The notes under the pieces are model-generated. The model was given only the letters and a program-made list of their open reading frames with translations, was not told the origin of the DNA and did no database searches. Positions 1 through 22,777 of a DNA stretch of 64,000 nt are shown here, in pieces. The position numbers and the translations under genes are program-made. The stretch's first letter is position 1, and each line of letters opens with the position of its first letter. Source of the stretch: a virus. The stretch is taken from positions 32,001 through 96,000 of the IMG/VR virus record IMGVR_UViG_3300017917_002765. One strand, written 5' to 3'.

Positions 1-46
1 TCGAACGGGAATGCTAGCAACCCAATCCAGCTTGCCCAAAAGGGTA
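1..46 (-). ncRNA. Truncated tRNA-like element running off the window edge
   Basis: Minus strand ends ...CCCGTTCGA (T-loop-like) right after tRNA-Asp; full cloverleaf not visible. Confidence 0.3.
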
Positions 47-57
47 TTTAGTTTTTG

Positions 58-129
58 CGGTCTATAAGGGAATCGAACCCTTACCACATCATAGACAGTG
101 ATGTATCCTAGCCATTGGACCAATAGACC
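58..129 (-). tRNA. tRNA-Asp(GTC)
   Basis: Acceptor GGTCTAT/ATAGACC; anticodon arm CATCA-CTGTCTA-TGATG; TTCGATT T-loop. Confidence 0.95.
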
Positions 130-139
130 GTATTAAAAG

Positions 140-211
140 TAGCCCCAACGGGAATCGAACCCGTCTTTTTAGGTTGAAAACCTAACGTCCTAACCGATAG
201 ACGATAGGGCC
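140..211 (-). tRNA. tRNA-Glu(TTC)
   Basis: Anticodon arm TTAGG-TTTTCAA-CCTAA; canonical cloverleaf. Confidence 0.95.
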
Positions 212-217
212 ATTTTG

Positions 218-290
218 TGGTGAGAAAGGGTGTCGAACCCTTATCTCTGGTTTTTCAGACCAGCGCATAGACCACCTTTGCTATCTCACC
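218..290 (-). tRNA. tRNA-Phe(GAA)
   Basis: Acceptor GGTGAGA/TCTCACC; anticodon arm CTGGT-CTGAAAA-ACCAG. Confidence 0.95.
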
Positions 291-302
291 ATATTTTAAA
301 AC

Positions 303-334
303 AAAAAAGCTTGGTCATTTCTGGCCAAGCTTTT
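303..334 (-). terminator. Attenuator terminator 1 (before the Phe/Glu/Asp tRNA operon)
   Basis: AAAAGCTTGGCCA-GAAA-TGACCAAGC-TTTTTT hairpin plus U-tract between leader ORF and first tRNA. Confidence 0.88.
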
Positions 335-357
335 CATCTATTTATTAAACTTTGAGT

Positions 358-450
358 TTACTTTTTAGACAATAGTTGACCACCTAGGCTTTTATCAGCC
401 TCGGCTGCGAATTCAAACGCAAAATCAAATATGTTAGCAAAAGTTCTCAT
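358..450 (-). CDS. Leader peptide 1, MRTFANIFDFAFEFAAEADKSLGGQLLSKK (Phe/Asp/Glu/Ala sensor)
   Basis: 30-codon ORF after AAAAACA; codons 8-19 are only F/D/E/A; TGGTCAA (376-382) can pair with terminator 5' arm TTGGCCA. Confidence 0.88.
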   Translation of the reverse strand: MRTFANIFDFAFEFAAEADKSLGGQLLSKK

Positions 451-496
451 TGTTTTTGTTTTTAATTAAATATCTACTTGTTTTAAAAAGTTATTG

Positions 497-527
497 CAAA
501 TGTACTAAGTATTTTTGAATTTGTCAA
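497..527 (-). promoter_or_regulatory. Bacteroidota sigma70-type promoter for leader 1
   Basis: TTGACA-N17-TACATTTG (-7 element TAnnTTTG). Confidence 0.75.
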
Positions 528-540
528 GTTTTTTGTAAAA

Positions 541-2962: not shown

Positions 2963-3301
2963 TCAAATATTTGATATATTTTTATTAATAATTTTTTTTA
3001 ATTTTTTTTGAGTTAACAATTCTAATAAGACATCCCCATGACATGGTTTTGGTTTACAAAAACATCCAAGGGTTTTCCCTTCAAGTTCATCCAAAGAGTC
3101 CATTAACTCTGGTGTATTTAAAATGTATTCTTTATATTTTGAAATTGCCTCTTCTGATGTTTCTACAATTTCAGAAGCTAGTGTTTCTTTATCTCGTATT
3201 GTCGTGTATGGATTCCCCCATTTTGACCCCCTTCCAATATATACATCATATGATTGTTTGTTTATATTAACAACCTTTGTAACAGAATTTGTATTAACCA
3301 C
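2963..3301 (-). CDS. DUF4326 family protein
   Basis: YDVYIGRGSKWGNPY...LGCFCKPKPCHGDVL. Confidence 0.88.
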   Translation of the reverse strand: MVNTNSVTKVVNINKQSYDVYIGRGSKWGNPYTTIRDKETLASEIVETSEEAISKYKEYILNTPELMDSLDELEGKTLGCFCKPKPCHGDVLLELLTQKKLKKIINKNISNI

Positions 3302-4436: not shown

Positions 4437-4455
4437 TCCTATGCAACTTTTTTTG

Positions 4456-4540
4456 TAGGTCCACCCAGATTCGAACTGGGATTATACTTCTCGTCTCCAC
4501 TTTGTAAGAGTGGGATGTTTAGCCATTACACCATGGACCT
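4456..4540 (-). tRNA. tRNA-Val(TAC) with enlarged variable region
   Basis: Acceptor AGGTCCA/TGGACCT; CCACT-CTTACAA-AGTGG; 16-nt variable region. Confidence 0.88.
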
Positions 4541-22509: not shown

Positions 22510-22515
22510 ATGTTG

Positions 22516-22600
22516 CGGATTGGATAGGATTCGAACCTATGTGAACCTTACGGCCTTCGTGTTAACAGCACGCTGCTCTGACCAACTGAGCTACCAATCC
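22516..22600 (-). tRNA. tRNA-Asn(GTT) with long variable arm
   Basis: CGTG-CTGTTAA-CACG; variable hairpin GGCC-GTAA-GGTT. Confidence 0.88.
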
Positions 22601-22684: not shown

Positions 22685-22693
22685 AATTTAAAG

Positions 22694-22777
22694 TTGTGAG
22701 GGTGGGAGTCGAACCCACCTATAGAAATTAATCTCCAGTGTATCAGACTGGTGCCCAAACCGCTAGACCACCTCACA
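22694..22777 (-). tRNA. tRNA-Ile(GAT) with enlarged variable region
   Basis: CCAGT-CTGATAC-ACTGG; 16-nt variable region. Confidence 0.87.

Follow-up and report, generated by a model that had tools for sequence, protein, structure and literature searches.

Transcription attenuation by leader peptides is familiar from the amino-acid operons of enterobacteria, in which it is represented by trpL, hisL, leuL and pheL and by the multivalent leaders thrL and ilvL. In Escherichia coli, the leader peptide pheM, which contains Phe codons, attenuates pheST, the operon of phenylalanyl-transfer RNA (tRNA) synthetase. T-box RNAs work without translation: they bind uncharged tRNA directly, by means of a specifier codon and the T-box sequence. 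The present study concerns an element, called leader 1 in the following, that precedes a tRNA operon in a virus, IMG/VR record IMGVR_UViG_3300017917_002765. The stretch analysed, hereafter the window, consists of 64,000 nucleotides (nt), bases 32001-96000 of this single-contig, 136,575-base pair (bp) virus record (31% G+C). Judged from its sequence, leader 1 is probably an attenuator of transcription that acts through a leader peptide and the ribosome translating it, and that controls a phage operon of Phe, Glu, Asp and Ala tRNAs. We favour this reading because its open reading frame (ORF) is conserved, a terminator is present, the antiterminator covaries, and the codons match the tRNAs. The mechanism proposed below follows the model known for the trp, his, thr and ilv attenuators.

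Leader 1 resembles the attenuators of amino-acid operons in its promoter, its short ORF with regulatory codons, its mutually exclusive antiterminator and terminator, and the U tract that precedes the genes; like thrL and ilvL, it is multivalent, several amino acids being read. It differs from them in that it would regulate tRNAs rather than enzymes, so that the sensor would measure its own products, and also in being viral, in having four amino acids in one block, and in the weakness of its 1:2 protector, i.e. the pairing of regions 1 and 2 described below (for the pheL attenuator, see the accessible part of PMC3082878). The pheM leader is comparable in that the supply of Phe-tRNA controls a gene of the translation apparatus by way of a leader peptide, whereas its product is a synthetase, only one amino acid is sensed, and the system is cellular. 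The T-box, in turn, also senses tRNA status and chooses between terminator and antiterminator ahead of translation-related genes; unlike it, leader 1 has a conserved ORF and gives no T-box match at the gathering score.

At the Rfam gathering thresholds, the whole window matched only tRNA and transfer-messenger RNA (tmRNA) families, and no leader family, whether for Phe, Trp, His, Leu or Thr, was found. There was no T-box at the gathering score in the window, and none with an E-value up to 10 in positions 291..530. As its highest-scoring matches of attenuator type, a relaxed Rfam search of the same 291..530 interval gave a PyrR site at 26.8 bits (gathering score 54) and Phe_leader (RF01859) at 19 bits (gathering score 55, E 0.59). 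Leader 1 is not in any curated family, though its sequence suggests that it works like the leader-peptide class.

Among the published systems consulted, the nearest is the inducible trn operon of Anabaena sp. PCC 7120, which comprises 26 genes and, according to the available parts of the respective papers, is induced by translational stress (PMC8421152) and controlled by the ribbon-helix-helix repressor TrcR (PMC10272220). The parallel with the leader-1 operon is that accessory tRNAs would normally be kept off and be expressed only once translation suffers; the difference is that the Anabaena array depends on a repressor and is not specific to particular codons. In the available text of PMC8421152, the terms "attenuat", "leader" and "terminator" do not occur. 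Our literature search, which left most subscription journals outside its reach, did not turn up any description of tRNA genes under the control of leader-peptide attenuation, either in phages or in cells. The reason for which phages have tRNA genes has long been debated. For phage tRNAs, the roles proposed in the accessible portions of PMC10264068, PMC11555353 and PMC11464382 are codon compensation and escape from tRNA-cutting defences, and the regulation of phage tRNA genes is hardly addressed in the literature found. If our reading is true, classical attenuation, which acts on amino-acid and synthetase genes, would be extended to tRNA genes and to viruses, and would work in Bacteroidota hosts that do without Shine-Dalgarno sequences.

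Promoter, codon block and downstream tRNA genes

Positions are given in the numbering of the window, except those prefixed G000:C1, which refer to the whole virus record; L-numbers (L010, L036 and so on) designate loci on related contigs. All 17 tRNA genes of the window and its tmRNA gene lie on the minus strand. The promoter, the leader ORF and the tRNA genes behind it are located as follows.

497..527, minus strand: promoter of Bacteroidota type, with TTGACA as -33 box (527..522), a spacer of 17 nt, and the -7 box TACATTTG (504..497)
358..450, minus strand: leader ORF of 30 codons plus stop, peptide MRTFANIFDFAFEFAAEADKSLGGQLLSKK
394..429, minus strand: regulatory block FDFAFEFAAEAD, codons 8-19, i.e. 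twelve codons in a row, four for Phe, two each for Asp and Glu, and four for Ala
217..290, minus strand: tRNA-Phe(GAA), Rfam tRNA model 65.4 bits
139..211, minus strand: tRNA-Glu(TTC), Rfam tRNA model 61.9 bits
57..129, minus strand: tRNA-Asp(GTC), Rfam tRNA model 61.8 bits
G000:C1 31948..31874, minus strand: tRNA-Ala(TGC), outside the window, 53-127 nt beyond base 1, found by ARAGORN at default settings

Preceding the ORF, the promoter scan matched the sigma-70 pattern at 10 of 12 positions (minus strand, 497..527). We take the motif TAnnTTTG to be the -7 box of Bacteroidota, and our assumption that the host belongs to the Bacteroidota is based solely on this promoter type and on the A-rich start regions devoid of Shine-Dalgarno sequences. 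In leader 1, too, the region 5' of the ORF is A-rich and without a Shine-Dalgarno sequence, and such sequences are described as wanting in Bacteroidota in the accessible part of PMC6847099. The term Bacteroidota-type -7 box is in use in papers on Flavobacterium and Bacteroides, as far as their available text goes. The 343-residue ORF upstream has no Pfam family and hence gives no clue to the host. A 19-mer at the -33 box is present in three copies in the window, compared with 0.07 expected, and each copy is followed by a tRNA cluster with a short ORF and a terminator ahead of it; the arrangement TTG-N19-TAnnTTTG is kept in those leader-1 homologs whose upstream sequence was examined.

The sequence-only reading of this DNA had reported twelve consecutive F/D/E/A codons and five Ala codons in the leader, and both are present, the former at 429..394 and the latter as A5, A11, A15, A16 and A18. 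Two of the relevant residues, Phe4 and Ala5, are located upstream of the block; over the complete ORF, Phe and Ala have five codons each, and Asp and Glu have two each. The 12-residue block is the sole run of at least nine residues from the set {A,D,E,F} in the six frames of the 136,575-bp genome; the combined frequency of these residues in long ORFs is 0.223, which corresponds to about 1.5e-8 per position for a run of twelve. The block is therefore beyond what chance would produce.

The same reading had placed tRNA-Phe, tRNA-Glu and tRNA-Asp after the terminator, where they indeed lie (290..217, 211..139 and 129..57), and had predicted that the operon would continue past base 1 to a tRNA-Ala(TGC). 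ARAGORN, applied to the whole genome as well as to the extracted locus, found this gene with the expected anticodon at G000:C1 31948..31874, 108 nt downstream of tRNA-Asp and on the same strand. The operon does appear to continue beyond the window, as a pattern scan of the minus strand of the Asp-Ala spacer found neither a promoter-like nor a terminator-like site; between the leader terminator and tRNA-Ala, the single minus-strand terminator-like match is located inside tRNA-Glu.

The predicted cloverleaf of tRNA-Ala has the G3:U70 pair, which we take to be the mark of alanine tRNAs, a canonical T arm, a U-UGC-A anticodon loop, and a poor, atypical D stem. The atypical D arm, UACCAAGGCUGGCGA, is common to the tRNA-Ala genes of several relatives, namely those of L036 (879-952), L047 (11722-11795) and L072 (2661-), and one of those of L073 (3690-). 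The anticodon and T stems of these genes show compensatory changes, and the G3:U70 pair is retained. Because the odd D arm recurs, the stems compensate and G3:U70 is kept, we take the tRNA-Ala to be a real gene that has been under selection. The confirmed prediction gives the codon rule predictive power for the annotation of odd phage tRNAs missed by standard models.

Two further motifs were noticed near the start of these leaders. An ATATTTA box is found about 13-30 nt upstream of the leader ATG (window ~470..464) in the leaders examined, and a mini-hairpin, GGGGAAACCC, occurs in many 5' untranslated regions (leader 3 of the window, L036 and L047) and is absent from leader 1 of the window. 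They could represent a second, possibly phage-specific promoter or a binding site.

Codon-tRNA correspondence in relatives and in the same genome

IMG/VR and metagenome contigs, scanned by pattern and by peptide, yielded 13 distinct leader-1 sequences; the contigs that hold them, all from uncultured viruses or metagenomes, range in size from 1 kb to 362 kb. Every one of them has an ORF of 28-30 codons that starts with M(R/K)T(F/V)(A/N)N(I/V)FDFA. In 11 of the 13 homologs the block comprises 10-13 codons; in the other two (L070 and L072) it is interrupted by one Ile. Insertions and deletions in the block measure 3 or 6 nt, and its substitutions, except for this Ile, are confined to F, D, E and A. 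In support of the codon-matching rule put forward on the basis of the window alone, every homologous operon with four or more tRNAs behind the leader (11 of 11) has tRNAs for Phe, Glu, Asp and Ala. The order of the genes varies (Ala comes first in L070 and L072), as do their copy numbers, and other tRNAs are inserted.

Leader 1 has counterparts in its own genome. Three further tRNA operons have the same promoter type, an ORF of 24-33 codons and a terminator, so that this layout precedes each of the four large tRNA operons of the genome. The leader MKTTTTYTGKQYPQGKQG... precedes tRNAs for Pro, Gln, Tyr, Thr, Gly, Gly, Lys, Lys and Lys; the leader ...LVLVLCLLV... precedes those for Cys, Val, Leu, Leu and Leu; and the leader MRNINIHINSISMWRRNSN... 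precedes those for Trp, (Ser), His, His, Ile, (Ile), Asn, Asn, (Met) and Arg, where brackets mark tRNAs called by ARAGORN at relaxed settings only. The longest run of residues belonging to the amino-acid set of an operon is 17, 12, 9 and 18 residues when each of the four leaders is compared with its own operon, and 0-3 residues for other operons, the sets of operons A and 3 including tRNAs seen only at ARAGORN -ps85. With default ARAGORN, Ser and Met drop from operon 3 and the matching run becomes shorter, while the set of leader 1 is unaffected.

A comparison was also made over 20 leader-operon pairs of all leader types. Leaders A and 3, whose first tRNA lies more than 60 nt past the U tract, were added to this set by hand; pairs had to have three tRNAs or more, and two nested ORFs in other reading frames were left out. 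Residues 2-20 of the leader fell in the set of the own operon with a frequency of 0.608, the value for other operons being 0.287 (reached in 0 of 20000 permutations), a result that expresses the persistence of the codon-tRNA link and not 20 independent origins.

Searches in other collections did not extend the family. The leader had no match in the GenBank phage collection, either by DNA or by peptide, and a 6-kb DNA search gave short matches at 2976..3277 only, in unrelated large phages. Leader-peptide alignment against prokaryote genomes (one per species, 185,579 species) gave 112 pattern matches, none of which was confirmed. A search for RNA runs likewise found none.

In AT-rich intergenic DNA, short ORFs and hairpins are frequent, and the C-terminus of the leader peptide (DKSLG...) is fairly well conserved. 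Leader 1 might thus be a coincidence, or a micropeptide unrelated to the tRNAs with a hairpin that ends its own transcript. We consider this highly improbable, given that the block is unique in the six frames of the genome, that the predicted tRNA-Ala was found, that the link to Phe, Glu, Asp and Ala tRNAs holds in 11/11 operons, and that the three other leaders of the genome follow the same rule. Moreover, the residues after the block vary (DKSLG, DCRLG, EDCSSGG, DFSLG), while the RNA hairpin that they encode is kept.

Terminator, antiterminator and upstream hairpins

The RNA elements between the start of the leader ORF and the first tRNA gene are listed in the order of transcription.

423..444, minus strand: region 1, candidate protector strand, with ACUUUU, ACAUA and UUGAUU in codons 2-10
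405..397 / 390..382, minus strand: hairpin H1, GCCGAGGCT/AGCCTAGGT, GCC.GAGGCU / AGCCU.AGGU, codons 16-23
366..382, minus strand: region 2, 5' strand of the antiterminator, UGGUCAA-CU-A-UUGUCUA, codons 23-28
346..360, minus strand: apical hairpin UAAACU-CAA-AGUUUA, with the stop codon (360..358) inside it
322..340, minus strand: region 3, 3' strand of the antiterminator, UAGAUGA..AG.UUGGCCA, comprising most of the 5' arm of the terminator
298..335, minus strand: intrinsic terminator, with the stem-loop at 335..304 and U6GU4 at 308..298, ending 7 nt before tRNA-Phe

A terminator after the leader and an antiterminator strand TGGTCAA had both been proposed from the letters of the window. The former was recovered as the stem-loop at 335..304 with its U tract; it folds with -14.7 kcal/mol (z -4.73), and none of 200 dinucleotide shuffles, the control used for each element, was as good. 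The fold of the whole leader has -40.7 kcal/mol (z -3.92). In a sequence-only alignment of the 13 homologs, 83.3% of the cells of the terminator stem are paired and 8 of its 13 pairs are changed on both sides, with a covariation score of 0.373 against 0.216 (0 of 500 shuffles as high).

The strand TGGTCAA is located at 382..376 and pairs with the 5' arm of the terminator, an assignment to which covariation lends support. The antiterminator (382..318) folds with -16.1 kcal/mol (z -4.21, 0/200 shuffles as good). When the nascent RNA was folded from the end of H1 to the loop of the terminator, one and the same antiterminator architecture was predicted in 13/13 homologs, the pairing of regions 2 and 3 enclosing a small apical hairpin that contains the stop codon or abuts it; in seven homologs in which this hairpin was compared, its sequences differ. 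The two strands change together, as in UGGUCAA/UUGGCCA, GGUCA/UGACC, GGGUCA/UGACCC, GGGAGAGUC/GGCUCUCCC and GUCGAGU/ACUCGAU, and a second variation opposes UUGUCUA/UAGAUGA to UUGUCAA/UUGAUAA. In an alignment-free comparison, the mean energy of the 2:3 duplex was -14.74 kcal/mol for cognate and -11.78 kcal/mol for non-cognate strands (0/20000 permutations, a figure that applies to region 3 as widened to 27 nt only after the result for the terminator arm alone was known). In a sequence-only MAFFT alignment, H1 together with the antiterminator core was paired in 80.2% of cells, against 20-52% with the partner slid, and its covariation score of 0.181 against 0.130 was reached by 2 of 500 shuffles. 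The arrangement is predicted to be general in this genome: with a ribosome parked on the block, 4/4 leaders pair the strand just past the block with the 5' arm of their own terminator.

Hairpin H1 had been described as a protector hairpin. Its presence (405..397/390..382) is well founded: it folds with -11.1 kcal/mol (z -3.66, 2/200 shuffles as good), and in the homolog alignment its pairs are kept in 86.8% of cells, two of them changed on both sides. The variants AGGCU/AGCCU, AGGCG/CGCCU (L073) and GAGGAG/CUCUUC (L067) occur with differing encoded peptides, and since the hairpin covaries while the encoded peptide changes, H1 is an RNA element. Its proposed role was rejected, because H1 and the antiterminator strand have only one base in common (U382), do not compete, and coexist in the predicted nascent structure. 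A small hairpin is predicted just 5' of the antiterminator strand in 4/4 leaders of the genome; our guess is that H1 might be a pause hairpin that synchronises polymerase and ribosome. A candidate for the protector is region 1, whose partners in region 2 are the long-range segments GGUCAA..UAUUGU..AAAAGU; this pairing is part of the minimum free energy (MFE) structure of the 5' part of the leader in 12 of the 13 homologs folded, L073 folding differently.

In the mechanism that we propose, transcription would start from the host-type Bacteroidota promoter, and a ribosome would translate the 30-codon leader. When charged Phe, Asp, Glu and Ala tRNAs are plentiful, the ribosome would reach the stop codon (360..358) in the apical hairpin and, standing there, would cover or unwind the antiterminator 5' strand (382..366), covering 372..366 of it as well as the apical hairpin; the terminator would then form, and RNA polymerase would halt 7 nt before tRNA-Phe. 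When any of the four charged tRNAs is scarce, the ribosome would stall in codons 4-19, upstream of the antiterminator strand, reaching about 382 at most and lying on or between regions 1 and 2. Region 2, being free, would pair with region 3, and the polymerase would read through into the four tRNA genes, whose products would relieve the stall, resulting in a negative feedback on tRNA supply. The phage would thus probably make these tRNAs only when ribosomes are short of them. Sequence and comparison show the parts and their conservation, the covariation of terminator and antiterminator, and the agreement of codons with tRNAs; we infer that the ORF is translated and coupled to transcription, in which direction the switch works, what H1 does, and the weak long-range protector. 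A reverse logic of the pyrBI type was considered and rejected: with 25 nt between the stop codon and the terminator stem downstream of it, a ribosome would be unable to mask the terminator.

Several observations weigh against the attenuator as we propose it. As regards the codon rule, the block lacks codons for some of the downstream tRNAs (Pro in L036, Met in L047, Cys and Thr in L041, Gln in L073), and the two leaders with Ile in the block have no downstream tRNA-Ile; the rule is one-directional, leading from an amino acid of the block to a tRNA behind it and not the reverse. The homologs are related by descent, so that the 11/11 operons and the 20 pairs are not independent events. The tRNA-Ala genes of L041 and L047 are seen only at ARAGORN -ps90, and that of the operon studied here is not reported by the Rfam tRNA model at the gathering score, tRNA-Sec (22.8 bits) being the sole tRNA-clan match of a relaxed Rfam search at this site. 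With respect to the RNA structures, a simple terminator scan lists the hairpin on the plus strand only, as the minus-strand stem has one C.A mismatch, and the narrower duplex test with the terminator arm alone gave 726/20000 permutations. The pairing of regions 1 and 2 in the window copy is weak (z -1.60, 19/200 shuffles as good; z -0.6 for the duplex), and cognate strands had no advantage over non-cognate ones (1375/20000 permutations); with so weak a protector, an untranslated leader might therefore read through. The equilibrium MFE structure of the full leader holds the terminator under every ribosome mask applied. Finally, sensing of charged tRNA would also report amino-acid starvation, which is not cured by extra tRNA.

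As the terminator is always part of the equilibrium fold, the switch must be kinetic, if it operates as proposed, and the nearly isoenergetic antiterminator (-16.1 kcal/mol) and terminator (-14.7 kcal/mol) suit a kinetic switch. That same fold, as well as the weakness of the 1:2 protector, would also be expected of a constitutive terminator whose leakiness merely holds tRNA transcription at a constant low rate, in which case the codon make-up of the ORF would regulate nothing. We regard this as unlikely, because the ORF, its frame and the F/D/E/A block are kept in 13/13 homologs while the terminator sequences change, because a strand within the ORF covaries with the 5' arm of the terminator, and because 4/4 leaders of the genome match their own operons.

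The alternative hairpins exist whatever operates them, and a switch without a ribosome was also considered, working either by RNA alone, with T-box-like binding of tRNA by the codons of the leader RNA, or through a phage protein of the PyrR or TRAP type, either of which would decide between antiterminator and terminator. The likeness to the PyrR-binding attenuator, which at 26.8 bits stays below the gathering score of 54, and the conservation of H1, yet without an assigned role, are in its favour. Such a switch is nevertheless decidedly unlikely. No Rfam T-box or riboswitch family was found at the gathering score in the window; the conserved start codon and frame, the insertions and deletions in multiples of three, and the position of the stop at the apical hairpin point to translation; and the synonymous changes within the block (TTT/TTC, GCG/GCA/GCT) would be less tolerable for specifier pairing than for decoding.

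A possible set of tRNA sensors, and minor observations

The presence of four such leaders suggests a broader interpretation of ribosome-mediated attenuation in this phage, about which our own opinion is evenly divided. The leaders may constitute a tRNA homeostat, made of four ribosome-read sensors, one per tRNA operon, that together cover all 20 amino acids and among which leader 1 is the Phe/Asp/Glu/Ala channel. Each sensor would turn on its tRNA block only when decoding of those codons slows. The likely use of the homeostat would be to replace host tRNAs that are lost to shut-off or to tRNA-cutting nucleases, or that are outrun by the codon demand of the phage, and, if it exists, there would be no cost of constant tRNA synthesis. 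If this is true, the phage would gauge decoding capacity codon by codon and top up only the missing tRNAs. In that event, leader-peptide attenuation would for the first time be seen to act on tRNA genes, the translation capacity of the host would be measured by a device that a virus encodes, and the purpose of phage tRNAs would become directly testable.

The promoter and the leader were also encountered in other settings. A scan of viral contigs with the promoter 19-mer gave 35 loci, nine of which have tRNA or tmRNA genes (ARAGORN). Five of the 35 were inspected: L021, L025 and L027 have a leader and a terminator, L032 has no leader, and L010 has the same promoter with a short ORF and a terminator. 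In L010 (4305-4440), the ORF MKTYRHNFTELGQADTAWSNPCGRC contains 17 different amino acids, the terminator is strong, and there is no tRNA within ~1 kb; this may be a leader for "all amino acids" with another target. The degenerate pattern FDFAFEFA gave 13 loci, of which four have a leader and tRNA, eight are without tRNA, and one has a distant tRNA-Gln. In L060 (2665-2920), a tRNA-Met is located between the promoter and the leader-1 ORF. In L025/L050 and in L061, a protein-coding ORF lies between the attenuator terminator and the first tRNA, a layout in which the attenuator would therefore gate a protein gene as well.

Some of the other tRNA genes of the array are unusual. Three are oversized, namely Val (86 nt, 4455..4540), Asn (86 nt, 22515..22600) and Ile (85 nt, 22693..22777). 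A second Trp-like gene of 88 nt with anticodon CCA (G000:C1 55297..55384) is seen by relaxed ARAGORN only, and several array tRNAs are likewise called only at relaxed settings. A tRNA-Met cluster (~28861..29400, minus strand) has the same promoter type and a leader of ~270 nt (290-330 nt depending on the tRNA call), in which no codon-matched short ORF and no Rfam match at the gathering score were found; a homologous stretch precedes Met tRNAs in L053.

The two remaining features are the following.

29885..30241, minus strand: tmRNA gene, Rfam 75.1 bits, tag GNDFVVSENFLDEAACSFAGELAVA
1..56 plus 52 nt beyond base 1 (G000:C1 32056..31949), minus strand: spacer of 108 nt between tRNA-Asp and tRNA-Ala, strongly structured

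A near-identical copy of the phage tmRNA (29885..30241) is present on the related contig of L021. The Asp-Ala spacer has an MFE of -32.7 kcal/mol and a 12-bp closing stem, AAAAACUAAAUA/UAUUUAGUUUUU. Over 85 nt, it shares 95% identity with the spacer between two tRNA-Asp genes in L047 (11342-11426), and it shows a weak tRNA-Pro-like fold at ARAGORN -ps70 only; L036 has a real tRNA-Pro at this place. The spacer may be a decayed tRNA or some other processed RNA.

Beyond tRNA-Ala, an ORF on the minus strand (G000:C1 ~31808..31512) encodes a small protein that, by eye, is rich in Phe, Glu and Asp. No terminator match is present between tRNA-Ala and this ORF, and the next strong terminator is near G000:C1 31390; the attenuated unit may extend into the ORF.

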